DNA from: Porticoccus sp. W117
GTDB lineage: Bacteria > Pseudomonadota > Gammaproteobacteria > Pseudomonadales > Porticoccaceae
NCBI RefSeq assembly: GCF_030341905.1
Contig: NZ_JATAAF010000012.1
Span: 17,406-81,405, forward strand
Direction: 5' to 3'
Length of the DNA: 64,000 nucleotides
This document shows positions 47,942-64,000 of the stretch, piece after piece. The notes beneath the pieces were generated by a model, which was not told the origin of the DNA, ran no database searches, and saw nothing but the letters and a program-made list of their open reading frames with translations. The translations under genes and the position numbers were made by a program. How positions within the stretch are numbered: position 1 is the stretch's first letter; the number at the start of each line of letters is the position of its first letter.

Positions 47942-49081
47942 ATGCAGGACGCTTATATCACCGGAGTTGGCCGCTTCTTACCTGGCCCGACTATCAGCAA
48001 TAAAGAAGTAGAAGATTATATTGGCTGTATTCATGGTCAGCCCTCTGCTTTCAGAGCAGCCACTCTTCGCAAAAACGGCATCAAGACTCGCCACTACGCT
48101 GTCGATATTGAAGGTAATCACCTTTATACCAATGCTCAAATGGCTGCCGAAGCGATACGTGCAGCAGCGGCGAACGCCAAGCACGATGTAGCCTCTTTGC
48201 AACTACTGGCTACCAGTACAACTCAGGGTGATTTATTGGTGCCTGGGTTTGCCAGTGCTGTGCATGGTGAATTGGGCATACCGCCGCTAGAGCTAGCATC
48301 CTTCCAAAGTGTATGCGCTAGTAGCATGATGGCTATTAAAAACGCTTACCTGAATATCAGGTCTGGCGATAAACAAACAGCCGCTGCTTGTGGCAGTGAG
48401 TTTTCAAGCCGCTGGTTTCGCCCTGGCTTTTATGAATCTTGTGTTGCAGAGGAAGAGGCTCGCAAGCCGCCCATCGATCTGGATTTCTTGCGCTGGACAT
48501 TGTCCGATGGTGCTGGTGCTTTATTTATAGAGCCCAACCCCAAATCGGATGGAGTGTCCTTACGCTGTGACTGGATTGACCTTCAATCGTTTGCTGATCG
48601 CTTCGATCCTTGTATGTACGCTGGCTCCAGTAGCAATGTGCCAGGGGAAAATTTACCTTGGAGCCATTATGCCTCACCGCAGGAAGCTTACCAAGCAGGC
48701 GCGATGGCACTGAGACAGGATTTTGAATTGCTCTATAAAATGTTCCCGGTGTGGCTTGGGTACTACCTGAGTCTGATGGACAAACACGGCTTTAATCCAG
48801 AAAGCATTGACTATTACTTACCTCATTACTCGGCCAAATCCTTGGGCGAAGAGATGAAAAAACTGATGAAGAGCGCTGGGGCTATGATTCCGGAGGAGCG
48901 TTGGTTTAATAATCTAACCACTGTAGGTAATACCGGCTCGGCTTCGATTTTTTTGATGTTGGAAGAACTCTTGCGCGAACAAGATCTACAGCCGGGTCAG
49001 ACTATTCTTTGTTTCGTGCCAGAAAGCGGCCGTTGTATAGCCTCATTTATGCACCTCACTGTTGTCACCAACAAGGACTAA
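47942..49081 (+). CDS. 3-oxoacyl-ACP synthase III (FabH)-like condensing enzyme / acyltransferase
   Basis: N-terminal ITGVGRFLPGPTISNKE, candidate Cys-His-Asn triad (QSVCASSMMA, HYSAK, VGNTGSASI). AT-richer than upstream genes. Confidence 0.75.
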   Translation: MQDAYITGVGRFLPGPTISNKEVEDYIGCIHGQPSAFRAATLRKNGIKTRHYAVDIEGNHLYTNAQMAAEAIRAAAANAKHDVASLQLLATSTTQGDLLVPGFASAVHGELGIPPLELASFQSVCASSMMAIKNAYLNIRSGDKQTAAACGSEFSSRWFRPGFYESCVAEEEARKPPIDLDFLRWTLSDGAGALFIEPNPKSDGVSLRCDWIDLQSFADRFDPCMYAGSSSNVPGENLPWSHYASPQEAYQAGAMALRQDFELLYKMFPVWLGYYLSLMDKHGFNPESIDYYLPHYSAKSLGEEMKKLMKSAGAMIPEERWFNNLTTVGNTGSASIFLMLEELLREQDLQPGQTILCFVPESGRCIASFMHLTVVTNKD

Positions 49082-49087
49082 CCAGAT

Positions 49088-49774
49088 ATGGAAATGAAAT
49101 CCTCTAAAACAGCGGCACAAGCTGTAATGCGTCAACTCATAATCACATGGACCGATTTTGAAAGTCGCCTCCTGAAAGTGCCTATTATCGAGCGCATTAT
49201 GCGCGATCAATTACAGCTGGAAGATTATCGCCAAATCCTGCTAAACCATCGTCAGCAGGTTATAGAAGGCAGTCGTTGGATCGCCCGAGCCTCCTCTTCT
49301 ATTGATAATCGCTACCCGGAACTACGCTCTACTTTTATTCGTCATGCCAATACTGAGCATCGCGATTATCAGATGTTGGACGCAAATTACTTGTCAGTAG
49401 GTGGCGACGTAGAGACGTTGGCCAACAGTGAAAAGAATATAGGTAGTGAAGCCTTGTCTGCGTGGATGTTTCACCAAGCCAGTCAGCCCAATCCATTCGA
49501 CCTGTTAGGCGCAATGTTCATTATCGAGGGATTGGGAAAACAGTTTGCCCGCACCTTCGCTCAGAAAATTCAGAAACAATTGAGACTGAGCGATGATCAA
49601 GTGAGTTTCTACCTATACCATGCTGATCACGACGAAGAGCATATTGGTGAACTGGAAGATGCGCTGCAAAGCGGTATTCTCAGCGATGATGGCTTAGCCG
49701 GCCGCATTGCCAAGACCGCGCGGGTAACCGCCAGGCTTTATCTGTTGCAGTTGGAAGAACTGGGGAACTACTGA
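49088..49774 (+). CDS. heme-oxygenase-like fold protein, probable diiron oxidase (CADD/PqqC/TenA superfamily)
   Basis: 228 aa. Candidate metal ligands E...H (ANTEHRDYQ), E (IIEGLGKQF) and H-x3-D-x2-H (YHADHDEEH) spaced as in CADD-type enzymes. AAGGA RBS 6 nt after the KAS-III stop. Confidence 0.6.
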   Translation: MEMKSSKTAAQAVMRQLIITWTDFESRLLKVPIIERIMRDQLQLEDYRQILLNHRQQVIEGSRWIARASSSIDNRYPELRSTFIRHANTEHRDYQMLDANYLSVGGDVETLANSEKNIGSEALSAWMFHQASQPNPFDLLGAMFIIEGLGKQFARTFAQKIQKQLRLSDDQVSFYLYHADHDEEHIGELEDALQSGILSDDGLAGRIAKTARVTARLYLLQLEELGNY

Positions 49775-50634
49775 TGAGTTGGTCTGACGATTTCGACAAT
49801 CAAACCATCAATACAAAAGACCCTAATCCTTGGCTGGCACTCTATCTGGATGGCAGTTTGCCTATGCACGATCCTGCCAAGCAGGCGCTGCTGCGTGGTC
49901 ACAATACTTGGACCCGACGACTGCTTCTGCCCATTGTTCGTCCGCTTGCGCGGCTAAATATTATTTTGGTGCAACTTCTTCGAGTCATTTTGCCCGAGCG
50001 TTGTAGTTCTTCGCGGATATTGCACAAAACCATCTATTGGGGATTGAAAACTTTCGTCCGAAACGATGCCAATTACCTAATTTTGAGGCACTTCCATATC
50101 GGCACGGAGATACTGGGTTTTATTGCTGATAACGCCAAGGTCACCATCGAGAGTACCGAACCCCTGCGTCCCAATAATTTGGAAGGTTTAATCGAGGATA
50201 CCTTCCTGATTCACGATCTGAATATATTCAACTTTATTTTGGAGTTAAATCACAAGCTGAAGGAAGAGGGGCGGGATCTGACAGCTCCCGAACACCTTAA
50301 TTTGGGTTCTATTACCGATGGCGAGTTTGATATTGAGTTACCTAAAGAGAAGGCATTCAATGTGTTGGACTTACAGACAGCTATTGAAATGTATACGCCT
50401 TTGTACGCGCTGTTTCTATCCGATCGAGACTTCTGGCGTGCTAGTAATTCTTTACAGCTGGATGAAACGATTGCCATTTACATCGGTAAAATACTGAATG
50501 ATGCCATACCATTGGGTTTGGTGAATAATCGGCATCCGTCAGTACCTGTGTCGACTTTACAGGCGGGATTTCGGTTGATGCTGCATGGCTTGGATGCAGA
50601 GATTCTGCATGGATACCTGAGGAGTTTGAAATAA
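49774..50634 (+). CDS. hypothetical protein (286 aa), translationally coupled to the upstream gene (TGATG overlap)
   Basis: Stop/start overlap with the diiron-oxidase gene. No motif I recognise. Confidence 0.55.
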   Translation: MSWSDDFDNQTINTKDPNPWLALYLDGSLPMHDPAKQALLRGHNTWTRRLLLPIVRPLARLNIILVQLLRVILPERCSSSRILHKTIYWGLKTFVRNDANYLILRHFHIGTEILGFIADNAKVTIESTEPLRPNNLEGLIEDTFLIHDLNIFNFILELNHKLKEEGRDLTAPEHLNLGSITDGEFDIELPKEKAFNVLDLQTAIEMYTPLYALFLSDRDFWRASNSLQLDETIAIYIGKILNDAIPLGLVNNRHPSVPVSTLQAGFRLMLHGLDAEILHGYLRSLK

Positions 50635-50685
50635 CTGCTTATGTCTCAGCGGGTGAGTTATCAAATCTACCCCCACAGGTATCTA

Positions 50686-51312
50686 CTAGTCTCCCCCACA
50701 GCTACCACATGAGCTGCTGCAACCTCCACCACAGCGACCGTCTTTACCACCACCTTTACCACCGAAGCTGGCAAACAAAAATCGCAGAGCCAAAAAGCCC
50801 ACGACACACCAAAACCCTATTTCTAACCAACTGGTGCTTTGATCCCCACTTTCTGCAAAGGCAGTCGCTACGGTTCCTGCTAACGCTGCGGGTACAAACC
50901 ACTTCAGTATGTGACTCTTATTATTTGGCTTTGAATTCCATACTAATTGTGGCGGCTCTTTGCCAAATTCGGCTCGATAAAGGGCAAGGGTTTTCTCGAA
51001 TTGCATTTGCATCTGAGTATCTGAGGGAGTGTGATGCAGCTCGGCTCCAAGTATTTCTGAGCAAAACCGACCCCAGTAGGATTTAGTGAATGTCAGGTGT
51101 AAATGCCATACAAGATCAATCGCAGGGGAGGGTGAAACCATACCTTGCTGCAAGGTGGCCAGATAGCAAAATCGCTTGTATTCATCTACTACCTCTAGAC
51201 AGTGATTATGCTTCCAGCCAGTTTCTTGCTTTAGCTTGGTGATAAATAAATCATATTGCCGATCAGCAATTTTGTGATTACGAAGCCGATTCCATAGTTC
51301 TTGATTTGTCAT
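50686..51312 (-). CDS. DUF1399-like domain membrane protein with C-terminal Gly/Cys-rich tail
   Basis: 208 aa. N-terminal ~140-aa domain with IDLVWHLHLTFTKSYWGRFC (reminiscent of the plant/bacterial glycine-rich-domain protein family). One TM helix (WLEIGFWCVVGFLALRFLFASF). Tail GGKGGGKDGRCGGGCSSSCGSCGGD. ATGA start/stop overlap with the upstream NTase gene. Confidence 0.6.
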   Translation of the reverse strand: MTNQELWNRLRNHKIADRQYDLFITKLKQETGWKHNHCLEVVDEYKRFCYLATLQQGMVSPSPAIDLVWHLHLTFTKSYWGRFCSEILGAELHHTPSDTQMQMQFEKTLALYRAEFGKEPPQLVWNSKPNNKSHILKWFVPAALAGTVATAFAESGDQSTSWLEIGFWCVVGFLALRFLFASFGGKGGGKDGRCGGGCSSSCGSCGGD

Positions 51313-52106
51313 GCTACCCCCAATACTGAATGAAACAACTCGTTCAAATCTGACATATCAGGCCTAAGCATTGCCTTATCCAAATCAAGGTTGCTCAAAC
51401 GCTCAATCTCCGATTCCACATAATCATTGAGCGCCTTGATGGCGGGTACAAGCTCTTTTTCGGTGCTGGCTTGTTTGCGTTTCAAAAGAGCAGTTATCTC
51501 CCGATCAAGTTCTGATCCGTCAGGCACTAGCTTGCGCAGCCGATCAAATTCGATGGGCGGAGGTTCGCGGTACTCTTCTAACCAGCGGACAGAGAGCAGG
51601 GGGCGCAGCACATAGAAGTACTTTTTCAGGGGTACGATTTCTGCTTGCAAGTAACCACGGTAGTTGGTTTTGGCCATACTGCGATAATGATAGATGCCTT
51701 TTTCAACAGAGTATCCCCGGCTAAGCAAACTTCTGGCTTGTTCAGCAAAGTGGCCATCATCTACGTACACAATAGGTGATTGGAGCCACTCCACAAACGA
51801 GGGGTTAGACTTGCTGAAAAGCCTCAGTGCTTTGCGAACATCCCAGCCATTGATGTCTATTTCGTCGACTATCTCGTATTCGATCACATCCCGTTTATCT
51901 TCCAGATCTACAGCCACATACCAATCTTTTGGGTGCGCGTAGATAAAGCGAACATCAAAGTCGCTGTTTTGTGAGGCGAACCCCCAGGCTCTGCTGCCGG
52001 ATTCCACAGCGTACAGAATTTTGACGCTGTGTTCTTTTTCGGCGGCGCGTATTCGTCGCAGGATTTCTGCTCGGGTTTCTTTAGGTATCACATGTTCCAT
52101 CATCAT
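51309..52106 (-). CDS. Pol-beta-superfamily nucleotidyltransferase (RlaP/PF10127-like)
   Basis: GS-x9-DxD NTase motif in ILYAVESGSRAWGFASQNSDFDVRFIY. 265 aa. Confidence 0.7.
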   Translation of the reverse strand: MMMEHVIPKETRAEILRRIRAAEKEHSVKILYAVESGSRAWGFASQNSDFDVRFIYAHPKDWYVAVDLEDKRDVIEYEIVDEIDINGWDVRKALRLFSKSNPSFVEWLQSPIVYVDDGHFAEQARSLLSRGYSVEKGIYHYRSMAKTNYRGYLQAEIVPLKKYFYVLRPLLSVRWLEEYREPPPIEFDRLRKLVPDGSELDREITALLKRKQASTEKELVPAIKALNDYVESEIERLSNLDLDKAMLRPDMSDLNELFHSVLGVA

Positions 52107-52163
52107 GATGTCACCTATCAGTGAAAGCCATCTATTCGCCGCAATAGCAAATAGATGGCGGGT

Positions 52164-53312
52164 TTAGCTGTTGGGAGACAACTTGACCATATCATTCAGC
52201 ACGCTATCGAGACCACCGTAAACGGAGATCTTGTCGATGCGGCCGGTGACACGCTCCAGTGCTTCCAGTTCTTTCAAACGCAGCAGCATTGGGTTGTTTT
52301 CCATCAGCTTGGCGGTGTTATGCAGGGAGCGCATCGCCTGAGTCTCCTCGCGACGCTTGATCAGGTTGGCTTCAGACTCTTTTTGAGCCTCTACAACCTG
52401 ATTCAGAATTTCCTTCATATCACCGGGCAAGATAATGTCTTTTACACCAACGCTTGCCAGTTCAATTCCGTACTCGGTCAGCTTGCTGCGAATACCGTCT
52501 GCAATGGCGACGTTCAAGCTGTCTTTGTCTTCCAGCAAGTTATCCAGCGTCTGGGTTCCTACCGCTTCGCGAAGGTGCAGTTGCAGCTCGCGATAGACAA
52601 AGTTGGCGAAGTCGTTCAGCTTGAGTGCAACGATCTTGGGGTCGATCACCCGGTAGCTACCGCTTAGGTTTACCCGCAAGCTGACACGGTCTTTGGTCAG
52701 GATTTCCTGGCCGCTGACTTCGATCGCTTGCAAGCGCAAATCCAGCAGTTTGACGGCTACTGAGCGGTTGTACCTCCAGTAACCGTAGCTTCCTGGCTGC
52801 AGCAGCTCCTGAAACTTGCCATTAACGGTCAGAAGACCCACGTGCTCGTCGGGTACCTCCACATAGTTGATGGCGTTGGAGGCGTTGCGGCTTTTGCCAA
52901 TGGCCAAACCGCGGCCCAGCAACTTCAGCAGTTTGCTATCAATGGCAAACTTTTCGCTGATATCGATCACATCAATACGCACGTCTTCGATTCCCTTCCA
53001 TACGGCAAGGAAGGTGCCTGGTGCAAGAATATCCACCAGGTGACCATCGCGGTAGAACAGGCCTACCTGCATATCGGTCAGCTCAAAGCGGTCAATAAAA
53101 CCATTCAGCTTTTCGGCCTGAGTATTGAGCAGGAACTTGGCTTTGGCGTGGTCAAAAACAATGTTAGTGGCATCGTATTTTTCCAGGCGAGTTTTGCCAG
53201 CCAATGCGTTAATGCGATGGCGGCCGGGCTCAAGTACTCGGTCCAGCCGGTTGCGCCGGTACAGTAATGCCCGCTCGTTATCGGCGATATCTACAGTATT
53301 CCATAACATCAT
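52164..53312 (-). CDS. SPFH/band-7 (stomatin/prohibitin/flotillin-like) domain protein
   Basis: 382 aa. SPFH-like core (ILTKDRVSLRVNLSGSYRVIDPKIVALKLND) and a coiled-coil C-terminal region. No NfeD partner gene adjacent. Confidence 0.7.
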   Translation of the reverse strand: MMLWNTVDIADNERALLYRRNRLDRVLEPGRHRINALAGKTRLEKYDATNIVFDHAKAKFLLNTQAEKLNGFIDRFELTDMQVGLFYRDGHLVDILAPGTFLAVWKGIEDVRIDVIDISEKFAIDSKLLKLLGRGLAIGKSRNASNAINYVEVPDEHVGLLTVNGKFQELLQPGSYGYWRYNRSVAVKLLDLRLQAIEVSGQEILTKDRVSLRVNLSGSYRVIDPKIVALKLNDFANFVYRELQLHLREAVGTQTLDNLLEDKDSLNVAIADGIRSKLTEYGIELASVGVKDIILPGDMKEILNQVVEAQKESEANLIKRREETQAMRSLHNTAKLMENNPMLLRLKELEALERVTGRIDKISVYGGLDSVLNDMVKLSPNS

Positions 53313-53640
53313 TTTTCTCTCCTTTCTCTTGTTGTTCTTTAGGTTACAAATAAAGCGAGGCTCACCCGAAAACCCTGGGGCTGACAGCTTGATCTGCAGT
53401 GGGTGGCGGGTCAGTGGTTTGCGAATATCTGGTTCATTGCGCCTTTGTGTTAACTACTGCGCGCGTAAAACCCGTATTCAGCAAACTTGACCAGACACCG
53501 TCTACAAACTCCCCTGATAGCGGCAGTGAGATCGGCGTTCCAGTTTGTCAATTCTCTCGTTTGATCCAAAATTCGAATCAAACGATTGATGTCAAACATT
53601 CCAGAACCATGAGCCTCTGGTAGATTTATTTAGCAAGGAC

Positions 53641-53690
53641 CTGAACCTTGTGGGGACTCGAACCCCGGGCCTCTCGGCCTTACCTTTTTG
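53641..53690 (-). other. tRNA 3'-fragment-like element (variable-arm-like hairpin GGCCGAGAGGCC + T-arm-like GGGGTTCGAGTCCCC) immediately 3' of tRNA-Met
   Basis: Minus-strand reading. There is no 5' half. Possible att remnant or degenerate tRNA. Confidence 0.35.
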
Positions 53691-53706
53691 TCGTGTTTCA
53701 GACGAC

Positions 53707-53782
53707 TGGTACTTTGGCAGGATTCGAACCTGCGCCCGATCGATTATGAGTCGATTGCTCTACCCAACTGAGCTACAAAGTC
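53707..53782 (-). tRNA. tRNA with CAU anticodon (Met elongator or Ile2-lysidine type)
   Basis: Cloverleaf with D-arm GCTCAGTTGGGTAGAGC, anticodon loop CTCATAA, T-arm GCAGGTTCGAATCCTGC. By my reading the 1:72 pair is G:A and CCA is not cleanly encoded. Confidence 0.65.
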
Positions 53783-53912
53783 GGTGTTTAGGCCGGTTAT
53801 CAAATTGGTACACAACACATGAAGCATGCTTGTGCCAGGCCGATAATCAGAATCGGCTCCGCTAATTTGAATAACAGTTCCCAAACCTTGTTGTGACAGA
53901 CCGCTTATTGCA

Positions 53913-54476
53913 TTAAGCAGCCTGCCAGCATCTTTGCCCGGTAAACCGAGCTTGCAGGTACTCCATTTGATCGCCGCGAATGCGACGGTTTGCCAAGTAC
54001 ATAAACTCAAATACATTTGGCTCAAAGGGAATAGCCAGCAATTCCATACCTGCCTGCTCCGGTGTGCGGCCACCTTTGTGGCTATTGCAACGGGCGCAGG
54101 CGGCAACCACGTTTACCCAGACATCCGGGCCTCCTTGCACACGGGGCACAATGTGATCTCGGGTCAGTACCCGATCATCAAACTGCTGTCCGCAGTACAT
54201 ACAGCGGTGGCCGTCGCGGCGAAACAGCAGGCGATTGCTCAATGCCGGTATAAAGGCTCTTTTCCCTATGTCACCCTCGCAGGCAATAATGGGGGCAAGC
54301 AGCAAAGACGAGCGCTCACCATGGCTATTGATGCCACCGTTAATACGGTAGTGGTCTTCGCCCAGGCTCCACAGCACTTGCTCTTTCACATACAGAACCA
54401 CAGCCTCTTCAGGGGTAACCCATGATTGAGGCAGACCTGTTTTGTTCAGCCTTAGAATGCTGTTTTGCATTGCCAT
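53913..54476 (-). CDS. HNH endonuclease
   Basis: HNH motif HRCMYCGQQF...TRDHIVPRVQGG...AACARCNSHKG. Start MAMQNS at 54476 with a GGAGAAGGAGA RBS. Embedded in the tRNA array. Confidence 0.8.
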   Translation of the reverse strand: MAMQNSILRLNKTGLPQSWVTPEEAVVLYVKEQVLWSLGEDHYRINGGINSHGERSSLLLAPIIACEGDIGKRAFIPALSNRLLFRRDGHRCMYCGQQFDDRVLTRDHIVPRVQGGPDVWVNVVAACARCNSHKGGRTPEQAGMELLAIPFEPNVFEFMYLANRRIRGDQMEYLQARFTGQRCWQAA

Positions 54477-54518
54477 TTTTCTCTCCTTCTCCAATATCGT
54501 GCTCGGCATTGAGCACTA

Positions 54519-54600
54519 ACACCCGATGCAGGAATCGAACCTGCCACCTTCAGCGCCGCTGACCAAAGTTCCACTCCTGTAGAGCTTTTTAATCAGCTGG
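54519..54600 (-). other. degenerate tRNA-like region (good T-arm GCAGGTTCGATTCCTGC but no complete cloverleaf)
   Basis: Several short hairpins and T-arm-like motifs on both strands. Possible pseudo-tRNA. Confidence 0.3.
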
Positions 54601-54614
54601 ACTGGTCGAGTCCG

Positions 54615-54689
54615 TGGTTGGGGCAGTGGGAGTCGAACCCACCTATGCCGGCTTAAAAGGCCGGTGCACAACCGCTATGCCATACCCCA
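54615..54689 (-). tRNA. tRNA with UUU anticodon (nominally Lys) on a Gln-like body
   Basis: TGGGGTATGGCATAGCGG...CACCGG-CCTTTTAAG-CCGGCAT...GGTTCGACTCC...TGCCCCA-A-CCA. Body matches tRNA-Gln conventions (U1:A72, G2-G4), but loop CUUUUAA and discriminator A73 are Lys-type. Confidence 0.6.
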
Positions 54690-54704
54690 AAAAATCATTA
54701 ACAT

Positions 54705-54778
54705 TGGCTGCGGTGCCTGGAATCGAACCAGGGATATCGGAGTCAAAGTCCGATGCGTTACCATTACGCTACACCGCA
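54705..54778 (-). tRNA. tRNA-Gln (UUG)
   Basis: TGCGGTGTAGCGTAATGGTAACGCATCGGACTTTGACTCCGA...CCTGGTTCGATTCCAGG. U1:A72, anticodon loop CUUUGAC. Confidence 0.8.
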
Positions 54779-54793
54779 TATTTCCTGTGCATT

Positions 54794-54867
54794 TGGGGTG
54801 GCGCCGGGGATCGAACCCTGGTCTCCTGGTTCACAGCCAGGCACTCTGCCACTGAGCTAACACCACC
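54794..54867 (-). tRNA. tRNA-His (GUG) with extra 5' G
   Basis: GGTGGTGTTAGCTCAGTGGCAGAGTGCCTGGCTGTGAACCAGG...GGTTCGATCCCCGGCGCCACCCCA. Confidence 0.85.
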
Positions 54868-54889
54868 GTAGCAACACTTATTTCTAAAT

Positions 54890-55037
54890 TGGTGCCCCAT
54901 CTTGGAGTGACTCGAGCCATCCATGGCTCTCGGGCTGCGCCCGCCTGCGGCGCCCAAATTTGCTCTCCTGCAAATTTGTCGAACCAAGAACCTCCAGAAT
55001 CTAAATCTGGCGCCTCTTCCAATTGGGCCAATGGGGC
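54890..55037 (-). ncRNA. aberrant 148-nt tRNA-like gene: tRNA-type acceptor (GCCCCAT...ATGGGGC-A-CCA), D-arm and anticodon arm (loop TTTAGAT, anticodon UAG) but about 90 nt of extra hairpins where the T-arm should be
   Basis: Read from the minus strand. The termini pair perfectly and end in ACCA. The interior has three hairpins (AAATTTGC/GCAAATTT, a GC-rich stem, GAGCC/GGCTC) instead of a canonical T-arm. Confidence 0.4.
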
Positions 55038-55052
55038 AAATAATTAATTATT

Positions 55053-55127
55053 TGGCTGGCCTGGCAGGACTCGAACCTGCGATATTCCGGTTAACAGCCG
55101 GACGCTTTACCACTCAGCTACAGGCCA
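55053..55127 (-). tRNA. tRNA-Asn (GUU)
   Basis: TGGCCTGTAGCTGAGTGGTAAAGCGTCCGGCTGTTAACCGGA...GCAGGTTCGAGTCCTGCCAGGCCAGCCA. Confidence 0.85.
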
Positions 55128-55140
55128 ACAGCTTTTAAAA

Positions 55141-55183
55141 ACACTAAAAAATAAAACCCCGACTGGGGCTGCCAGACGGGGTT
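55141..55183 (-). terminator. intrinsic terminator (minus-strand sense) insulating the tRNA array from rtcBA readthrough
   Basis: aaccccg...cggggtt hairpin. On the minus strand it is followed by TTTTATTTTTTAGTGTTTTT. Confidence 0.6.
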
Positions 55184-55798
55184 TCGAAATTGCTTTCTAC
55201 TGATCCGAATGGCGTAGCCATTCGGAACTTCCGAAGACTACTTCATTGTTGTTTCTCCTGACCTTCTGCCATTGAGTGAGCCAGAAAATTACGTTGTTTA
55301 TGAGAGAAGAGGGGGCTTACATAGTTTTTGGGCGCATCTTCCCTCTGCCCACTTATCTGCGGGCACAGTTCATTAAAATTCGAAAGTTGTTCTGTCCAAT
55401 TACTCAGCAAGCTATTCTCCTCACTGTTCTCATCATTTTCTTTCGGGTACTAAAAAGCCCGGATCAGTTACCTCGTAAAGAGGTGGCCTGCCGGGCTTTA
55501 CAATAAAATATCATTTCATTGTAAACCTGAAAGGCCAGTTAGCCTTCCAGGTTGAAAGCTAACTAATACGCTACGTTCAGGTGTTCACGATCTAACCCAG
55601 CACACATTGGCTGGCTATTTTTAAATTGCACTATATTTTGGTCGCAACTATCCTGGCACAGTATCGAGCTGTGCTTGGGAAGTGTGTTGTAGATAAAGTC
55701 TATCTTCATTGCGACGATTAAAAATTCAAAAAATATAATTTGGTTGGCAATAATAATCTTCAAAAATATTATGTCAATCAATTTCCGAATTTTAAAAA

Positions 55799-56815
55799 CT
55801 ATTTATCGACAAAAACTTCCCAGTAATCTTTTTTCAGCTCTTTAAGCGAGATGTTTACTCCTGTCATTTGTTTAATCACATCAATATTTGTCAGCAAGTG
55901 CTGACTTGGTTGTAGAGTACGAAAGCATCCTCCATTACCTAATGCCATAGGCAATACCAGTTGATCGGCCAAGTGCTCACCCACTGGTACATCTGCTTCC
56001 AGATAACGCTTCATATCCTTCATCGCTCGCCCGGCAACTCGCTCTGCACTGACATGCCGTTCGCCAACAGATTCAAACACTTCCGTAACTGCTTCTGATG
56101 CAACTTGCAACGATAGTAAGTTGCCAGGGCCTGCGGAGTTAACCAGTTTTTGCGTCAACTCTGATTCGCTCCAGTAGCATTTCTTTTGCACTTGAGCCAA
56201 CTCGCGTTCTGTCACATGCTCTGGCACGCGCGCAGATATGGCGACAGCTTTTCGCTTAATAATTTCGCCTCGCTTGACCAAATCCAGAGACTTGACTCCC
56301 TTGGTTGGTTGTATTCGGGCTTTCCAAAATCCGCCGCCTGCCGGGTAAAAACCGTATCGCTCTAGTTCCACCTCAACATGGCAACCCATTTTATTTATGA
56401 TTGGTAAAAAGCACCGTTCAATAAACTCGAAGCTCGGTGCCATACCGTTATGGGTTCCACCCTCCAGAGTTAATTCGCTAATATCATCAGCAAGAAGCAG
56501 GGGTAGTAGCACCGTCTGGAATACCAACGTCGTACTGCCCGCCGAGCCAATCGCAAAATGGTAGCTGCCTGATTTAACCTTTCCGGGTTCAAACGTCACC
56601 CTGGATGATCCCATTGCATCACCACTGACCTGAGCATTGCAAATGCCCTGAGCAGCCCGCAAGCAGGTTAAATGCTGGCGCAATAATCCCGGCTTGTTTC
56701 TGCCTGCCCGAATATTCTCAATGCAGACCGACTTGCCAAGGCACATGGCCAGGGTCAACGAGGTTCTGAATATTTGCCCTCCACCTTCGCCTTGAGAGCC
56801 GTCGATAGTGATCAT
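55799..56815 (-). CDS. rtcA: RNA 3'-terminal phosphate cyclase
   Basis: MITIDGSQGEGGGQIFRTSLTLAMCLGKSVCIENIRAGRNKPGLLRQHLT aligns with E. coli RtcA. 338 aa. Confidence 0.93.
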   Translation of the reverse strand: MITIDGSQGEGGGQIFRTSLTLAMCLGKSVCIENIRAGRNKPGLLRQHLTCLRAAQGICNAQVSGDAMGSSRVTFEPGKVKSGSYHFAIGSAGSTTLVFQTVLLPLLLADDISELTLEGGTHNGMAPSFEFIERCFLPIINKMGCHVEVELERYGFYPAGGGFWKARIQPTKGVKSLDLVKRGEIIKRKAVAISARVPEHVTERELAQVQKKCYWSESELTQKLVNSAGPGNLLSLQVASEAVTEVFESVGERHVSAERVAGRAMKDMKRYLEADVPVGEHLADQLVLPMALGNGGCFRTLQPSQHLLTNIDVIKQMTGVNISLKELKKDYWEVFVDK

Positions 56816-56910
56816 TCTTCTTTCTCTTTAGCTTGTTTATTCACAACTAGCCGCAAGCGTCCGTCAAAAACGGTCGCCATCCCCTGGCGTAAAAACATCC
56901 CTGTAAACCG

Positions 56911-58137
56911 TTAACCTTTCACGCAGACGACTTGCTTCAGCGTGTAAACCACTTCTACCAAGTCCTTTTGCGCTGCCATCACTTTTTCGATGGGCTTGTA
57001 CGCAGAAGGGGTCTCATCGATTACACCTTGGTCCTTACGGCATTCCACATCCGCTGTGGCCAAGCAATGCTCTTCCAGTGAAACCAGTTTCTTGGCTTGT
57101 GTACGAGACATCACTCGTCCGGCGCCGTGGCTGCAGCTGCAAAAGCTCTCTTCGTTACCCAGGCCGCGAACTATGAAAGACTTTGCTCCCATGCTGCCGG
57201 GAATAATGCCCATCTCACCTTCGCGGGCTCGTACCGCGCCTTTGCGAGTGACCAATACGTTTTTGCCGTAGTGGTTTTCGCGGGAGACGTAGTTATGGTG
57301 GCAGTTCACTGCTTCCATACGCGCCTCAAAGTTGATTTTCATGGTATCGCGCACGGCTTTAATGACTCGGGCCATCATTACCTCGCGGTTCAGCCGGGCA
57401 AATTCCTGCGCCCATTCCACCGCTTCCACATACTGATCAAAGTGCTCAGTGCCTTCCGGCAGGTAAGCCAGATCAGAATCCGGCAGATGGATATGCCAGC
57501 GTTCCATGTCTTTTTTAGCCATCTCGATAAAGTGCGTACCAATACGGTTACCCACTCCGCGAGAGCCGCTATGGAGCATTAACCAAACTGCATCGTGCTC
57601 GTCCAGACACATCTCAATAAAGTGATTGCCGGTACCCAACGTACCCAGGTGGTTCAGGTTATTGGTGTTTTTCAGCACACGGTGCTTTTCTTGCAGCACA
57701 TCGAACTGGCCTGCCAGTTGTGCCCAGGCAGTCATTACGTCGTCCGGCGCATTAGTCCAGGCACCTTTATCCCGGTTGCCTCGGGCGCGAGCAGAACGAC
57801 CGTGAGGTACAGCTTTCTCAATCGCTGAGCGAATACCCGCCAGGTTATCCGGCAGCTGGGAAGCGGTAAGGCTGGTGCGAACCGCCATCATTCCGCAACC
57901 AATATCCACACCCACTGCAGCGGGGATTACTGCGCCCAATGTGGGCACTACGCTACCGATAGTCGCGCCTTTACCCAGGTGCACATCGGGCATGGCCGCT
58001 ACCCACCTATGAATAAAGGGCATACGGGAAATGTTTTTCAGCTGATCTTTGGCCTTATCTTCAAAAGGTACGCCCACAGTCCAGGACTTGATAGGTACGC
58101 CACCATCCTGCATCACTTCGTAAGTTTGTTCATTCAT
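56911..58137 (-). CDS. rtcB: RNA-splicing ligase RtcB
   Basis: 408 aa, near-full-length identity to E. coli RtcB (MPDVHLGKGATIGSV, GTGNHFIE, C-terminal HGAGRVMSRT...VVCVKG). Confidence 0.95.
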   Translation of the reverse strand: MNEQTYEVMQDGGVPIKSWTVGVPFEDKAKDQLKNISRMPFIHRWVAAMPDVHLGKGATIGSVVPTLGAVIPAAVGVDIGCGMMAVRTSLTASQLPDNLAGIRSAIEKAVPHGRSARARGNRDKGAWTNAPDDVMTAWAQLAGQFDVLQEKHRVLKNTNNLNHLGTLGTGNHFIEMCLDEHDAVWLMLHSGSRGVGNRIGTHFIEMAKKDMERWHIHLPDSDLAYLPEGTEHFDQYVEAVEWAQEFARLNREVMMARVIKAVRDTMKINFEARMEAVNCHHNYVSRENHYGKNVLVTRKGAVRAREGEMGIIPGSMGAKSFIVRGLGNEESFCSCSHGAGRVMSRTQAKKLVSLEEHCLATADVECRKDQGVIDETPSAYKPIEKVMAAQKDLVEVVYTLKQVVCVKG

Positions 58138-58185
58138 TTTTCAATTCCTGTAAATAGCTGTTCTCGTTTTTCTTGTTATGGGTAT

Positions 58186-58202
58186 AGCAAGGCGGGGGCC
58201 AA
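58186..58202 (-). promoter_or_regulatory. sigma-54 promoter of rtcBA (TTGGCCCCCGCCTTGCT = TGGC-N7-TTGC)
   Basis: GG and GC elements at the exact consensus spacing. About 45 bp upstream of the rtcB start. Divergent from rtcR. Confidence 0.75.
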
Positions 58203-58346
58203 CTTTTGTAGTGAGGTGAAAATATTTCTTAAGTTGCTGAAAATAAAAGAATAAATATTTTTATTATGCTGAGGCTAGTGATTGCAGCAAAAAATTAAGT
58301 TAAATTTAACTATCAAAATAGATATAAAAATAATATATTCGATATT

Positions 58347-59942
58347 ATGAGAACAGTAGCGATCAGTATTCTTGGGACTATCCTGGACCGGCGCGGCAAG
58401 AGAGAAAAGCGCTGGGACAAGTGGCGTCCCACCGTTTCCATGTGCCAACACGAAGATATGGTTATCGACCGGCTGGAGTTGTTATTTGATAACCACTCAA
58501 AACGCCTCGCTGAGCAAGTTACCGAAGATGTGGCCAGGGTATCGCCGGAAACTGAGGTGGTTCATCACCTGGTTAACTTTAATGACCCCTGGGATTTTGA
58601 GACGGTTTACAGCACTTTGCTGGATTTCACTCGTGGCTATGATTTTCAGACCAGTGAAGAGCAGTACCTCACGCATATCACCACCGGTACGCACGTGGCA
58701 CAGATATGCCTGTATCTGCTGACTGAAGCTGGCTATCTGCCAGGAAAGCTGTTGCAAACATCGCCTGCTAAGCGTGGCAGCAATGCACCAGGGCAATATC
58801 AAATTATTGACCTGGACCTGTCGAAGTACGACCAAATAGCCTCGCGCTTTCAGAAAGAGCACCAAGAGGGCACCAGTTACTTGAAAGGTGGCATAGAGAC
58901 CAATAATACCGCCTTTAATAAAATGATTGCCCAGCTTGAGCAAGTGTCTATCCGTTCCAGTGAGCCTATATTGATTACCGGGCCAACGGGTGCCGGCAAG
59001 TCATGGCTTGCGCAGCGGGTTTATGATCTTCGTAAGCAGCGGGGTAAATTATTTGGTCCTTTGGTGGCCGTGAACTGCGCCACGTTACGTGGTGAAAATG
59101 CCATGTCAGCATTGTTTGGCCATAAGAAAGGCGCATTTACCGGTGCTACAGCGGACCGTCCTGGTTTGTTGATGGAGGCCAATAATGGATTGCTGTTTCT
59201 GGATGAGATCGGAGAGCTCGGGCTGGATGAGCAAGCTATGTTGCTCAGGGCTGTCGAAGACAGGCGCTTTATGCCGTTTGGCTCCGATAAAGAGGTCAGT
59301 AGCGACTTTCAGCTGATTGCGGGTACCAATAAAGATCTTATCCAACAGTGCCAGAAAGGGGCGTTTCGGGAAGATCTTCTTGCCCGCATTGACCTCTGGA
59401 CCTATCGACTGCCATCTCTGAACGAGCGAAAAGAGGATATAGAACCCAACCTGGAATACGAGTTGGAAAAATTCTCCACGAAATCGGGTTATCTGGTTAA
59501 GTTCAACAAAGCGGCCCGAGATAGATACCTATCATTTAGTCATTCTGCCGAAGCAGTTTGGTCGGCCAATTTTCGAGACCTCAACGCCAGTATTACCCGT
59601 ATGGGAACATTGGCTGATGGTGGTCGAGTTACTGTCGATCTGGTGGATGAGGAAATCATGCGCCTCAAGCGCAAGTGGCAGGTGGGAGCTCAAGATAGAG
59701 AAGGGCATGTTGAGATGATTGATAGCGTCTTGGGTGCTGGGTATGCCGCTACTATGGATTATTATGAGCAAATTCAGCTGGCAGCTCTTATCGAGGTGTG
59801 TAGATCATCCAGGTCAATGGCGGATGCTGGCAGAAAGCTCTTTAATGTAAGTAGGGCGGCTAAAAAATCTAGTAATGACTCCCACCGGGTCAAACAGCTG
59901 CTGGGAAAATACGATTTGGAGTTTGCTAACCTTGAATTGTAA
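58347..59942 (+). CDS. rtcR: sigma-54-dependent transcriptional regulator RtcR (CARF-like N-terminal domain + AAA+ + HTH)
   Basis: Colinear with E. coli RtcR: N-terminal VAISILGTILD...RWDKWRPTV...HITTGTHVAQIC, then GPTGAGKS and GAFTGA. Confidence 0.93.
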   Translation: MRTVAISILGTILDRRGKREKRWDKWRPTVSMCQHEDMVIDRLELLFDNHSKRLAEQVTEDVARVSPETEVVHHLVNFNDPWDFETVYSTLLDFTRGYDFQTSEEQYLTHITTGTHVAQICLYLLTEAGYLPGKLLQTSPAKRGSNAPGQYQIIDLDLSKYDQIASRFQKEHQEGTSYLKGGIETNNTAFNKMIAQLEQVSIRSSEPILITGPTGAGKSWLAQRVYDLRKQRGKLFGPLVAVNCATLRGENAMSALFGHKKGAFTGATADRPGLLMEANNGLLFLDEIGELGLDEQAMLLRAVEDRRFMPFGSDKEVSSDFQLIAGTNKDLIQQCQKGAFREDLLARIDLWTYRLPSLNERKEDIEPNLEYELEKFSTKSGYLVKFNKAARDRYLSFSHSAEAVWSANFRDLNASITRMGTLADGGRVTVDLVDEEIMRLKRKWQVGAQDREGHVEMIDSVLGAGYAATMDYYEQIQLAALIEVCRSSRSMADAGRKLFNVSRAAKKSSNDSHRVKQLLGKYDLEFANLEL

Positions 59943-60083
59943 TTCTGATTTTAAATCGCCTCTTCAACTTTGAGTGATGTTAAGAGTGCTGCTTTTATCG
60001 GTAGAAGGGGATAGATTAGGCAGCATGGCGGGGAAGTGGTTTATACTCCCAGCCTTTATAAGGATATTTGGACTTCCTGCCTC

Positions 60084-61427
60084 ATGAACCATACCTGTTG
60101 TCCTCGCTTTACTCTCACTCGATTTCTTGCGCTGACGTTACTGTCTTTATGTGTGTTGCAAGCAAACACGGCGGCTCAGGAGCCTGAGCCTGCTGATACG
60201 GTTTATTACCAAACTATTCTGTACCTGATCAAAGAGCCTGCTAACCTGGGCAAGTTGATGCAGCACGAAGTTCCTGGGTTTACCAAGGCGGAAGAGTGGC
60301 CTGATAAGGTCACTAGCCCCATATACCGGTTGGAACAGTTTAGAGACCTGAAAAATCAACTGCCGCCGCCAGATATGCAAACACTGTCCTATTTTGGCCG
60401 AGGCTTGTCCCGCCAGGAGGCAGAAGAGCTGCAGCAGGCTGAGCTGGCCATTGTGTTGACCGCAGCCTATCCCATTGAACAAAACATCAAGCACCTGAAG
60501 GCACTAAACAACTTCAGCCATCGACTGGCTACAGAGAACGGCGGTTACCTGTGGGACTCAGAAACTCGTGAGCTTTTCACTCCTGATGTCTGGAAGGTTC
60601 AACGATTGGACGCTTGGCACGGTGACATTCCACTTGCTCACCAACATACCGTGATACACGCTTATCAAGACACAGACTACGTGCGGGCTATCACCTTGGG
60701 CATGGCGAAGTTTGGGTTGCCTGATATCGTGGTGAACAAGTTTTCTTGGTCTTCTAATCGCTCAATGGGCAATCTGATTAATATCGTCGCTCAGTCTCTG
60801 GCCGAAGGAGTTGTGCCCGAAGCAGATGGCCGGCTGACACTCAACATCGATCAATTGGCTGATACGCCTTTTAAGAAAGAAATGCTGGAAAGCTTACTCG
60901 ACAATGCTGAACGTCAAGTTACCCTGAGTATTGCATCAGGCAAATGGGAAGAAGGCGATCCACAGAACATCCTGTTGGAGCTGACTTTCCACGATATAGA
61001 GGGAAGAGACCTGCACGCCAAACAGGAAGCTTTATTATCGCGCTTGTTTGGCTGGGAAGACTCCATCGTCTACGTAGAACAAAACAAACAGATAGAGGCC
61101 GCCAGCAATAGGGCCAAAGAAAAACTGTCTTTATTGAAAGAAGCTTTCAATAAAGGCCTTAACCCCGGCGAGTACATTCTACTAAAAGCTCCTTTCGAGA
61201 CTCCAGATGGTGGTACTGAATGGATGTGGGTGGAGGTAATCACCTGGCGCGATGACAGCATTAAGGGGCTTCTGAAAAACGAACCCTTCAAAATACCCGA
61301 CCTCCATGGCGGTGCTGAGGTCACAGTGAGCCAGAAAGACATTTTTGACTATATCTGGAACCGTGCTGATGGCAGCCGGGAAGGTAACGAGACAGGTGAA
61401 TTGATACAGAAATACCAAAATCAGTAA
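60084..61427 (+). CDS. secreted hypothetical protein (signal peptide; C-terminal region of unknown function)
   Basis: Signal peptide RFTLTRFLALTLLSLCVLQA after MNHTCCP. The ORF-track start 60036 would be a GTG with no RBS. Confidence 0.55.
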   Translation: MNHTCCPRFTLTRFLALTLLSLCVLQANTAAQEPEPADTVYYQTILYLIKEPANLGKLMQHEVPGFTKAEEWPDKVTSPIYRLEQFRDLKNQLPPPDMQTLSYFGRGLSRQEAEELQQAELAIVLTAAYPIEQNIKHLKALNNFSHRLATENGGYLWDSETRELFTPDVWKVQRLDAWHGDIPLAHQHTVIHAYQDTDYVRAITLGMAKFGLPDIVVNKFSWSSNRSMGNLINIVAQSLAEGVVPEADGRLTLNIDQLADTPFKKEMLESLLDNAERQVTLSIASGKWEEGDPQNILLELTFHDIEGRDLHAKQEALLSRLFGWEDSIVYVEQNKQIEAASNRAKEKLSLLKEAFNKGLNPGEYILLKAPFETPDGGTEWMWVEVITWRDDSIKGLLKNEPFKIPDLHGGAEVTVSQKDIFDYIWNRADGSREGNETGELIQKYQNQ

Positions 61428-61486
61428 TGAGTCGCAGGAGCGTGCTCTAGTAAATAGGCATTAAATCAATTTGAAGTGGTGGATAA

Positions 61487-62122
61487 ATGCAAATGAAATT
61501 TAGTGTATTGGCTTTAGCAGGATTATTGCTCTTTGGTTTTGGGTATGACTTTTCGGAGGAAGACCAAATTTTACTGGCGTCTAATAATATTGAGGCCAAT
61601 GCTCTTGGCTCGATATCAGCGATTAAAGGGGTAGAACAGCTTCATACCTATGACGATGATTACAATCAAGTAAAAGCAAAGGGGGTTTTGCTGAAAGTGA
61701 AGCCAAATTCAGGCTGGAATGTAGTTAAGACTCTTAGGAAAAACCTCTCTGATAGTCCTTATCAGGCCTATTTTTACGATAACAACTTTGGCTATGGTGA
61801 TGATGAAGTCGCAGTTGTGCCCACTAAAGACTCTATTCAGTACCTGAAGACAGTTAAAACCAACGGCTTGAACTACGACCTCACAGCGGATGATGTACTC
61901 AAAAAATATATCGAGTGGAATGATAGGTTTGATCTCAGGCTGCTAGGAGCTGGCATGGATTGGCTTCAGGCGGATGTAACGAAAGATGGTATTGATTGGC
62001 GGCAGTTCGCAAAAGAGGTGTATGAATTCTGCCCAGATGTGGTGGATCAAGGGACTGGCACTGTTGAAGCCCTTGAGTCTGAAATGAGGAAATCAAAAAC
62101 ACTGTATTTATGGTGGGATTGA
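61487..62122 (+). CDS. secreted hypothetical protein (211 aa)
   Basis: Signal peptide MQMKFSVLALAGLLLFGFG. AT-rich. Ends ...LYLWWD. Confidence 0.5.
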   Translation: MQMKFSVLALAGLLLFGFGYDFSEEDQILLASNNIEANALGSISAIKGVEQLHTYDDDYNQVKAKGVLLKVKPNSGWNVVKTLRKNLSDSPYQAYFYDNNFGYGDDEVAVVPTKDSIQYLKTVKTNGLNYDLTADDVLKKYIEWNDRFDLRLLGAGMDWLQADVTKDGIDWRQFAKEVYEFCPDVVDQGTGTVEALESEMRKSKTLYLWWD

Positions 62123-62178
62123 TGGAAGTCAGAGCTCGGAGACTGAATCTTGCTCCCTATTTATCAAAGGAGAAAGTA

Positions 62179-62697
62179 ATGAAATGCTTTATAGGCGCTA
62201 TGTTGTTATCCCTCTGTTTTTATTCTTACGCAGATAATATTGAAGAGATACAAAGCCTTGGAAATAGCTTGACTGAAGCGGTCAAATCTAAATCCTATGT
62301 GAAGCTTAAATCATTCTCAAATACAAAAGAAATCAAAAAATTCTTAAGTAAGAATAAATGTCCGGGATACAAGTATCGAGCTTATGTCTTGGCTGATAAA
62401 AATAAATTCTATCTGGTGGCTTCAAAAGGTAAAGGTGTCGTAATTGGTAGACACTTTGTTGGCAATATTAACGATAATACTGTTGATATTGACTCTCTCT
62501 CTAGTTCTACCAAGGGTTGTATAAACCTAGGACCTACGCAAAAAGACTCAGCTGCAAAATTTGTTACTCATTTAAAACCCGAACCGAGTGAATTTCACGT
62601 TCTACAGAGTAACTTAGCGAATATTGCTCTTTTTGTAAGTACAAAGGGCGGCTTATATTCAGTTTCTGAAGGAAATGTGAAAAAAATAAAGGATTAG
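62179..62697 (+). CDS. secreted hypothetical protein (172 aa)
   Basis: AGGAGA RBS, signal peptide MKCFIGAMLLSLCFYSYA. Very AT-rich, Lys-rich. Confidence 0.5.
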   Translation: MKCFIGAMLLSLCFYSYADNIEEIQSLGNSLTEAVKSKSYVKLKSFSNTKEIKKFLSKNKCPGYKYRAYVLADKNKFYLVASKGKGVVIGRHFVGNINDNTVDIDSLSSSTKGCINLGPTQKDSAAKFVTHLKPEPSEFHVLQSNLANIALFVSTKGGLYSVSEGNVKKIKD

Positions 62698-62789
62698 TGC
62701 ATAGCCAGATCGGGCGTAACCGCTGTCGCGATTTTCTGGTTGTTGTGCGGTTCATCAGCATCAAAAGCTTTATATAAAGGATATATAAG

Positions 62790-63515: not shown

Positions 63516-63576
63516 TTCATGTTTGAGCATGTGATTTAGCAGGCCGACCTTGTGTTTAACTATCTTGCCGTTAGTA

Positions 63577-63652
63577 TGAAGCATGAGGGTTACCTTTTGG
63601 TTTTGATTGATTTCAGGTTTAGTCACCTTCAATCAAAATCGGTAACCCTCTC
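63577..63652. repeat. long near-perfect inverted repeat (gagggttacc-ttttggttttgattga ... tcaatcaaaa-tcggtaaccctctc)
   Basis: About 25-bp arms around a short spacer. Could be a terminator, a MITE-like element or an IS end. Near the window end. Confidence 0.5.
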
Positions 63653-63669
63653 TTTTTCAAGAGGATGTG

Positions 63670-63948
63670 TCAGATTTGGTCTGAACTACTCCAGCTGATA
63701 TCCAGCTTGGCATTCGCAATTTCATCATCGGTAAATATAGGCTTCATATTGCATTGTTGACGATACCGTCGAAGTGCTTCATGTGCGCCATTCAAGTATT
63801 GAAAGGAGACTATGAATCGCCAGTGTACGTGGCAGTGGTAGCTGCGTAGAAGACCTGGGGATTTGACTCGAGCTGACCTTTCCCCAGCTTTAGTACCACA
63901 GCTTCGATGAGACTTGCCCAATCTATGCCGCCTGATTTGCAAAAGCAA
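63670..63948 (-). CDS. hypothetical ORF (92 aa), possibly a mobile-element remnant; weak
   Basis: ORF-track only. The composition shifts and the C-terminus reads MKPIFTDDEIANAKLD. No recognisable domain. Confidence 0.2.
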   Translation of the reverse strand: MLLQIRRHRLGKSHRSCGTKAGERSARVKSPGLLRSYHCHVHWRFIVSFQYLNGAHEALRRYRQQCNMKPIFTDDEIANAKLDISWSSSDQI

Positions 63949-64000
63949 CGGGCGGCAGATAATTCAATGAACTATGTGGCCGAACGTGATTGTAGTGTTG

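Follow-up and report, generated by a model that had tools for sequence, protein, structure and literature searches.

A tRNA-Lys(UUU) gene with a tRNA-Gln-like acceptor stem in Porticoccus sp. W117 as a probable functional spare tRNA of L-array descent

The tRNA gene at positions 54,615–54,689 (minus strand) of a 64 kb stretch of the Porticoccus sp. W117 genome (hereafter the window, meaning the whole of the stretch analyzed) is a genuine tRNA-Lys(UUU) gene. It is best read as a functional, supernumerary elongator tRNA that descends from an L-array, not as a recently converted tRNA-Gln, and a probability of roughly 70% is given to this reading, which rests on sequence comparison. L-arrays are horizontally spread tRNA arrays with a conserved HNH endonuclease gene and rtcB nearby; their default state is silent, and impaired translation induces them along with rtcB (PMC8421152). 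In an earlier sequence-only reading the gene was taken for a tRNA-Gln body bearing tRNA-Lys identity elements, and either remoulding after duplication of a tRNA-Gln gene or a divergent tRNA-Lys borne by a mobile element was proposed as its origin. The second of these proposals agrees with the distribution of the homologs described below, and the first does not.

tRNA genes were called with ARAGORN and scored against the Rfam tRNA model RF00005 (gathering score 29). The window contains five called tRNAs, which lie within 53.7–55.1 kb and share the minus strand: Asn(GUU), His(GUG), Gln(UUG), Lys(UUU) and a CAU tRNA. The Lys gene was called as tRNA-Lys(ttt) and scored 60.7 bits (E = 1e-10) against the Rfam model. 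Its full RNA, UGGGGUAUGGCAUAGCGGUUGUGCACCGGCCUUUUAAGCCGGCAUAGGUGGGUUCGACUCCCACUGCCCCAACCA, forms a cloverleaf with a 7-bp acceptor stem and D, anticodon and T arms, and is parsed as UGGGGUA U G GCAU AGCGGUU GUGC A CCGGC CUUUUAA GCCGG CAUAG GUGGG UUCGACU CCCAC UGCCCCA A CCA, with the CCA encoded in the gene. Under the E. coli identity rules, a UUU anticodon and A73 make up the identity set of lysyl-tRNA synthetase (LysRS). The gene in the window carries UUU in a 7-nt loop together with U33, A37 and A73, and by these rules its product should be a LysRS substrate. The features first noticed in the sequence stand: the acceptor stem has U1:A72 and a G run extending from G2 to G5 (G2–G4 had been listed), the anticodon loop is CUUUUAA and the discriminator is A73, and the G36, U38 and G73 specific to tRNA-Gln are missing, their places being taken by U36, A38 and A73. 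The neighboring gene is, as had been noted, a bona fide tRNA-Gln(UUG), located 15 nt upstream at 54,705–54,778 (minus strand), with U1:A72, G73 and an Rfam score of 72.2 bits.

The origin of the gene was traced through its homologs; comparison loci are designated L0xx here (L019, L021, L033, L037, L048, L055, L057, L062 and L064–L072). A pattern consisting of U1, G2–G5, the CUUUUAA loop, the T-loop and CCCCA followed by A73 was matched in only 3 of 185,579 species genomes. Because the pattern is nearly absent from these genomes, the housekeeping tRNA-Lys of the host probably differs from the tRNA-Lys in the window, which argues against the possibility, also considered in the sequence-only reading, that this body is simply that of the lineage's canonical tRNA-Lys. 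Two of the three genomes are metagenome-assembled Cellvibrionales genomes (L019, Spongiibacteraceae; L021, Cellvibrionaceae), and both are syntenic with the window, with rtcB, rtcA, a tRNA array, HNH, a CAU-type tRNA and SPFH. Coding DNA in these two loci is 68–76% identical to that of the window, compared with 92% and 97% for the Lys gene. Further copies were found in the metagenome contigs L033 and L037, and a look-up of HNH homologs added L066–L068. The Lys copy in L037 matches the window gene at 74 of 75 positions, and the enclosing 176-nt block is only 76.7% identical. By masked identity the nearest relatives are Lys(UUU) genes (0.88–0.99), and the nearest relatives outside the family, which is marked by the D-arm GGCAUAGCGGUUGUGC and the T-arm GUGGG/CCCAC, are a tRNA-Lys (0.76) and E. 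coli tRNA-Gln (0.74).

The HNH-linked arrays place these homologs in a wider setting. Aurantivibrio plasticivorans (L065) has a 25-tRNA array in an integrase-bearing island, with an HNH homolog (64% identity) directly behind it. The tRNA-Lys of this array, UGGAGGUUGGCAUAGCGGUGGUGCAUCGGCCUUUUAAGCCGACUUAGAUGGGUUCGACUCCCAUACCUCCAACCA, is 0.88 identical to the window gene with the loop masked, and its acceptor stem, UGGAGGU/ACCUCCA, differs from that of the window by compensated substitutions; the exact tRNA-Gln acceptor is therefore a trait of the Porticoccus-clade copies and not of the family. The window (Lys, Arg remnant, HNH) and three other loci are collinear with the order Lys-Thr-Arg...HNH of L065: L021 has Lys, an interrupted Thr and HNH; L037 has Lys, Arg and HNH; and L066 has Lys, Thr, Arg and HNH. 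In the L065 array, 11 of the 25 genes have a first base other than G, and U1:A72 occurs in six isotypes (Met, Ile, Asn, Gln, Val and Lys), so that U1:A72 is a habit of the array lineage and not a mark of tRNA-Gln. Arrays of 14 tRNAs (L048) and 24 tRNAs (L057) also lie beside HNH homologs that are 40–44% identical (40% in L048). Among viral contigs, the U1/GGGG/UUU/A72-A73 pattern was matched in six, all of them phage tRNA arrays, and in three of these the acceptor UGGGGUA/UGCCCCA sits on an otherwise unrelated, Lys-typical body. The family-specific pattern had no match in 2.9 million viral contigs, megablast of the locus against phages gave no match, and a distant BLAST search against phages and plasmids gave only generic matches to Asn, Gln and Met tRNAs. 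From this distribution, the window gene would descend from the tRNA-Lys of a horizontally transferred L-array travelling with the HNH endonuclease gene, and Porticoccus sp. W117 and other Cellvibrionales would retain a shrunken, partly decayed copy of the array between rtcR-rtcB-rtcA and HNH-SPFH-RlaP.

The resemblance to tRNA-Gln was assessed by direct gene alignment with the tRNA-Gln genes of E. coli K-12 (glnU/V/W/X). The two share U1:A72, the acceptor stem (UGGGGUA on the 5' side, which is identical, and 6/7 positions on the 3' side, 13/14 in total), U8, G10, GCACCGG and the CAU that opens the variable loop. They differ in the anticodon (UUU, not UUG/CUG), in the loop (C32/A38, not U32/U38), in the discriminator (A73, not G73) and in the D- and T-stems. 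When the tRNA was searched by BLAST against E. coli genomes (28 Gb), no match was returned at E≤1, the query being too short for a database of that size. Over the full length, the gene is identical at 53/75 positions to E. coli tRNA-Gln, at 52/76 to E. coli tRNA-Lys and at 47/75 to the neighboring tRNA-Gln. The set U1:A72, G2:C71 and G3:C70 expected of a tRNA-Gln is complete, although G2:C71 and G3:C70 are equally found in E. coli tRNA-Lys; the accompanying YUG anticodon with G36, U38 and G73 is not present. Profile hidden Markov models (HMMs) were built from 17 Gln and 24 Lys genes, which are small and partly pattern-selected training sets, after the anticodon arm, discriminator and CCA had been stripped. 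On these models the window Lys body scores 22.5 bits as Gln and 20.3 as Lys, the neighboring true tRNA-Gln 34.9 and 20.5, and the Aurantivibrio homolog 12.4 and 17.2. Because the two scores of the window gene are nearly equal, with a slight Gln edge that comes from the acceptor stem, its body is ambiguous as to isotype.

Parts of the supposed Gln body recur in other tRNA-Lys genes. The arm CACCGGnCUUUUAAnCCGG(CA) recurs in phage arrays, where many tRNA-Lys genes with G1:C72 carry it, and also in the ~30 metagenome contigs mentioned below; the AGCGGU D-loop and the CCGG anticodon stem are likewise present in many tRNA-Lys genes with G1:C72. Ten viral contigs contain the anticodon arm CACCGGnCUUUUAAnCCGGCA; where this coincides with a called tRNA, that tRNA is a tRNA-Lys(UUU) beginning with G or A, not U. 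A scan of metagenomes for AGCGGUnnnGCACCGGnCUUUUAAnCCGG gave 40 contigs, ~30 of them with one canonical-looking tRNA-Lys, GGGCCGUUAGCUCAGCGGUAGAGCACCGGCC... Such contigs carry the CCGG stem and the D-loop in tRNA-Lys, and both are therefore ordinary tRNA-Lys features in some lineages. The 14-tRNA array of L048 contains the same D-arm and anticodon arm on a Lys-typical acceptor, GGGUCGU. The earlier assignment of the anticodon stem and body to tRNA-Gln convention is thus not upheld, and the likeness appears to be superficial and restricted to the acceptor stem.

The Lys gene is well conserved as a structure. Across six homologs, 99.2% of the stem cells of the alignment are paired and 8 of the 21 pairs have changed on both sides, with compensatory changes in every stem that varies; none of 500 shuffled controls reached any of these measures, and slid controls were 30–47% paired. 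The UUU anticodon, A73 and CCA are invariant in all homologs. Taken with the high identity of the gene amid diverged DNA, the compensation and this invariance indicate that it is under selection as a decoding tRNA. The anticodon stem has G39 and C41 where E. coli tRNA-Lys has U39 and A41, a comparison in which E. coli and not the host tRNA-Lys is the reference.

These observations suggest a conditionally expressed spare tRNA-Lys that belongs to an RNA-damage response. Charging by LysRS would be expected from U34-U35-U36, A37 and A73. Because the Lys gene sits just behind a conserved intrinsic terminator, expression is probably by read-through only, either from the promoter that follows rtcA or on the RtcR-dependent rtcBA transcript. 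Once made, the product would serve as a spare tRNA-Lys under translational stress or damage to the housekeeping tRNAs, and since its anticodon stem differs from that of E. coli at positions 39 and 41, it may be insensitive to stem-cutting tRNases. A broader proposal, which is doubtful, would make the locus a 'repair plus replace' island in which activation of RtcR and terminator read-through deliver a set of nuclease-insensitive variant tRNAs, comprising Lys(UUU) and Asn(GUU), to which relatives add Thr(UGU) and Arg. Broken tRNAs would be re-ligated with the aid of RtcB, RtcA, RlaP and a CCA-adding enzyme and at the same time bypassed by nuclease-proof spares. In a still bolder extension, the interrupted Leu(UAG) gene of the array would need RtcB for its maturation. 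If the repair-plus-replace proposal were true, the island would be a chromosomal, host-side version of the stratagem of phage T5 against PARIS; to our knowledge, a nuclease-evading spare tRNA has so far been shown only for T5 against this system.

The body/anticodon mismatch could instead reflect remoulding, in which a tRNA-Gln gene, either the adjoining one or one of the host, was duplicated and converted to Lys at positions 32, 36, 38 and 73. The adjoining Gln gene, the 13/14 match of the acceptor to E. coli tRNA-Gln, the GCACCGG and CAU common to both and the 2-bit Gln edge of the body all speak for such an origin. The conversion would nevertheless have required four separate changes, and the supposed donor next door is identical at only 47/75 positions, while E. 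coli Gln and Lys are equally similar to the gene. The homologs, moreover, are all Lys(UUU), the L065 homolog has a different acceptor and a better Lys than Gln score, L048 places the same arms on a Lys-typical acceptor and the CCGG stem is common in tRNA-Lys. Remoulding is for these reasons very unlikely. Even less credence can be given to a dual identity, by which glutaminyl-tRNA synthetase (GlnRS) would charge part of the pool through the Gln-type first pair and AAA would occasionally be read as Gln. E. coli GlnRS contacts U1:A72, G2:C71, G3:C70, G10 and U34-U35, all of which the U1 members of the family retain. The major GlnRS determinants, however, are G36, U38 and G73, all of which are absent; G2:C71 and G3:C70 are as typical of tRNA-Lys, and U1:A72 is general in the array lineage.

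Several observations weigh against a functional spare tRNA, and some of them are what a decaying relic, an intact but functionless leftover of an array being lost, would show. The array neighbors are interrupted or truncated (an interrupted Leu gene and an Arg remnant in the window; altered His, Cys and Thr genes in L021), and L055 retains the Lys gene only as a 5'-truncated remnant directly after rtcA. Array content differs among relatives, and L071 and L072, which were ascertained through HNH, share the leader and HNH but lack an array, so that the tRNAs are dispensable. The strong conserved terminator abuts the array from upstream and leaves no room for a promoter of its own, and the array may for this reason be mostly silent. 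L066–L068 have a C11-A24 mismatch in the D-stem. Four of the five Lys-bearing, Rtc-linked arrays were found by means of the Lys pattern itself, which introduces an ascertainment bias. The idea that Lys is the sole universally kept member of the array was weakened by L071 and L072. A relic is still unlikely: the Lys gene is 92–99% identical where coding DNA is 68–76% identical, its changes are compensatory, and its anticodon, A73 and CCA are invariant, in contrast to the drifting anticodon of the downstream 'Met' gene. A non-decoding role, in which the tRNA would draw off tRNA-cutting toxins as a decoy or sponge or would yield cyclic-phosphate fragments that activate RtcR, is quite improbable. 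It would fit a repair locus controlled by RtcR, which senses damaged tRNA (PMC7790460), and a sponge role has been proposed for the array tRNAs of Anabaena (PMC8421152); the CUUUUAA loop is also the housekeeping tRNA-Lys loop and could therefore still be a target of loop-cutting nucleases such as PrrC. The strict A73, CCA and canonical acceptor helix are nonetheless needed by a charged tRNA and not by a decoy. PADLOC analysis of the island identified no tRNA-cutting nuclease and no defense nuclease apart from weak generic HNH matches; the lack of such a partner tells against a decoy and against the spare-tRNA reading.

As a functional spare tRNA-Lys, the gene represents a recognized, though little-studied, type of element, the L-array tRNAs, and is an unexceptional example of it. 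As in the trn operon of Anabaena PCC 7120 (PMC8421152), supernumerary tRNAs and pseudogenes are packed on one strand with an HNH gene and rtcB nearby, and HNH homologs likewise accompany the L065, L048 and L057 arrays. The distribution among taxa is patchy (3 of 185,579 species genomes) and, as in L-arrays, goes together with a foreign composition, seen as a drop in G+C content, and a variable array content; by analogy, the window array would probably be silent unless induced. The published L-arrays contain 23–43 genes, as opposed to five intact genes here, and have HNH upstream of the tRNAs and not downstream. Their regulation is associated with direct repeats in the promoter, in place of which the window array apparently has a leader terminator. 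The window array is also fixed in a gammaproteobacterial rtcBA locus of the sigma-54/RtcR type with SPFH and RlaP. The present locus thereby extends the link between tRNA array, HNH and rtcB from cyanobacteria to the RtcR/sigma-54-controlled repair operons of marine gammaproteobacteria, and the set of related loci, compact and with 0–25 tRNAs behind the same leader, offers material for testing spare tRNAs in the response to tRNA-cutting toxins.

Other systems resemble the locus in part. Phage T5 tRNA-Lys(UUU) evades the PARIS nuclease AriB by changes at positions 39 and 41 (PMC12409363), and the phage provides variants of the Lys(UUU), Thr(UGU) and Asn(GUU) tRNAs, all of which elude this nuclease (PMC12409363; see also PMC10264068). 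Like that of T5 (PMC11464382, PMC12409363), the window tRNA-Lys is a second tRNA-Lys of mobile-element type with a canonical loop and a stem altered at 39/41, and its companions Asn(GUU) and, in relatives, Thr(UGU) are the other AriB targets. It is, however, chromosomal, its stem sequence differs (G39, not A39), and the likeness is one of sequence. With the remoulded tRNAs of mitochondria and eukaryotes the gene shares conflicting isotype signals from body and anticodon; unlike these, it has no closely related donor of another isotype from which it differs mainly at the anticodon, and its relatives all have Lys anticodons. Such a mismatch can signal recoding or deliberate mistranslation, and recognition of a normal tRNA-Lys of array origin removes this false lead. 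The rsr-yrlBA-rtcBA operon of Salmonella, with the Y RNA YrlA (PMC7790460), is likewise an RtcR-controlled repair operon with tRNA-shaped RNAs, but the tRNAs of the window array are of the complete decoding type and possess both an anticodon and CCA. The scanned open reading frames of the island included no Ro60/Rsr gene, and no Y RNA was matched in Rfam.

The array comprises five intact and two to three degenerate genes within 1.4 kb, which is fewer than 'long' would imply, yet it is collinear with the 25-gene array of L065. All of its genes lie on the minus strand. Its first gene is tRNA-Asn(GUU) (55,053–55,127; ARAGORN; Rfam 74.8 bits), which is 90% identical in L019. Next, at 54,890–55,037, comes a tRNA-Leu(UAG)-like gene whose variable arm is short; it is not called in the presence of a 71-nt insertion in its T-loop (54,908–54,978), and once this is excised in silico, ARAGORN calls a 77-nt tRNA-Leu(tag) with a perfect cloverleaf. 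The insertion is clean, contains three hairpins and lies at UUCGA^CU, and L065 and L019 have uninterrupted homologs. A recent insertion, a pseudogene and an intron-like element are candidate explanations. The short variable arm is unusual for a tRNA-Leu, and this gene lies near rtcB; in the L065 array (4256–7978), all three Leu genes are likewise just 77 nt long and lack a long variable arm. tRNA-His(GUG) is at 54,795–54,867 (ARAGORN; Rfam). Beyond the Gln and Lys genes, a remnant of a tRNA-Arg (54,520–54,544), consisting of T-arm and acceptor strand, corresponds in sequence to the 3' part of a tRNA-Arg(ACG) gene that is intact in L037 and L066; in the window the 5' part has been replaced. In L021, ARAGORN calls none of four altered array tRNAs (3298–3440, 3580–3670, 3765–3850 and 4035–4225): in His, part of the T-arm is replaced by ~100 nt; in a CAU tRNA, the T-arm is aberrant; in Cys, the D-arm is enlarged; and in Thr(UGU), an interruption directly follows A37 and the T-arm is altered. 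The notion that all interrupted tRNAs contain clean introns was rejected, as the L021 His and Cys genes look by eye like replacements, whereas the window Leu(UAG) can be restored by excision.

Downstream of the array are the HNH gene (53,913–54,476, minus strand; Pfam HNH_5 and HNH) and a tRNA-like gene called as tRNA-Met(CAU) (53,708–53,782, minus strand; ARAGORN; Rfam). The HNH protein matches an HNH endonuclease of Porticoccus sp. W117 (Porticoccaceae, Cellvibrionales) at 100% identity, which fixes the source of the DNA. It has 823 homologs, and among the best 120 of these identity is 58–82%, a conservation unusual for a homing endonuclease. Against a defense library it gave only weak HNH-domain matches to PtuB and Cas9. 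It occurs alone, with no tRNAs or rtc genes, in Gynuella, Spartinivicinus and Motiliproteus (L062, L064, L069 and L070), and in L071 and L072 the leader directly precedes it, which indicates that the arrays are insertions of 0–25 genes between leader and HNH. The 'Met' gene keeps its cloverleaf, but its orthologs have a CAU, AAU or AUU anticodon or a broken loop, the discriminator varies and CCA is absent; the gene resembles a structural tRNA-like RNA that precedes the SPFH gene, and not a decoder. It is followed (53,640–53,700, minus strand) by a conserved hairpin and a T-arm-like GGGGUUCGAGUCCCC element. The odd tRNA-like pieces had no Rfam match as Y RNA or tmRNA even at E≤5.

The array is part of an RNA-repair island with the gene order rtcR-rtcB-rtcA-[array]-HNH-SPFH-RlaP. 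On the minus strand, rtcA, encoding an RNA 3'-phosphate cyclase (Pfam RTC; NCBIfam equivalog), occupies 55,799–56,815 and rtcB, encoding an RNA ligase (Pfam RtcB, 444 bits), 56,911–58,137. The sigma-54 activator gene of the repair operon, rtcR (Pfam RtcR and Sigma54_activat; NCBIfam RNA_repair_RtcR, 779 bits), is on the plus strand at 58,347–59,942; RtcR is activated by damaged tRNA (PMC7790460). Downstream of the array on the minus strand, the SPFH/Band-7 gene (52,164–53,312; Pfam Band_7) is syntenic in L019, L021, L037 and L066, and the gene for the RNA-ligase-associated Pol-beta nucleotidyltransferase RlaP (Pfam RlaP, 290 bits) is at 51,309–52,106. RlaP adds nucleotides to cut tRNA halves (PMC12776372). 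In the closest relatives, L066–L068, the island is extended (L066 1–12,120) and consists of RtcB2, an RF-1-family protein, RtcR, RtcB, RtcA, the tRNA array, HNH, SPFH, a PolyA_pol/HD protein resembling CCA-adding enzymes and RlaP. The RF-1-family protein beside RtcB2 is probably PrfH.

Several regulatory elements were predicted on the minus strand. A sigma-54-type promoter, TGGCCCCCGCCTTGCT, lies ~50 nt upstream of rtcB (58,186–58,201) and has one mismatch to TGGCAC-N5-TTGCW; matches with up to two mismatches are no commoner in the window than in shuffled sequence, and the assignment is based on position. A strong sigma-70-like promoter, TTGACA-16-TATTAT, was found by sequence scan just downstream of rtcA (55,750–55,777), and L019, L021, L066, L071 and L072 show a comparable TTGACx/TAxTAT pair. 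It is followed by ~290 nt of non-coding DNA ending in a terminator-like hairpin (55,455–55,500, minus strand). Directly upstream of the array, a leader hairpin with an intrinsic terminator (55,140–55,235) was identified by terminator scan and by a consensus structure of seven loci; it is conserved in all seven with four compensated pairs, ends 13 nt before the first tRNA and is a candidate attenuator or small RNA. The last 16 kb of the window (48,000–64,000) hold the repair island together with DUF6999, DUF2314, DUF4253 and DUF2225 genes. Across this region the G+C content falls from ~55% to ~47% (39–52%), which is consistent with acquired DNA.

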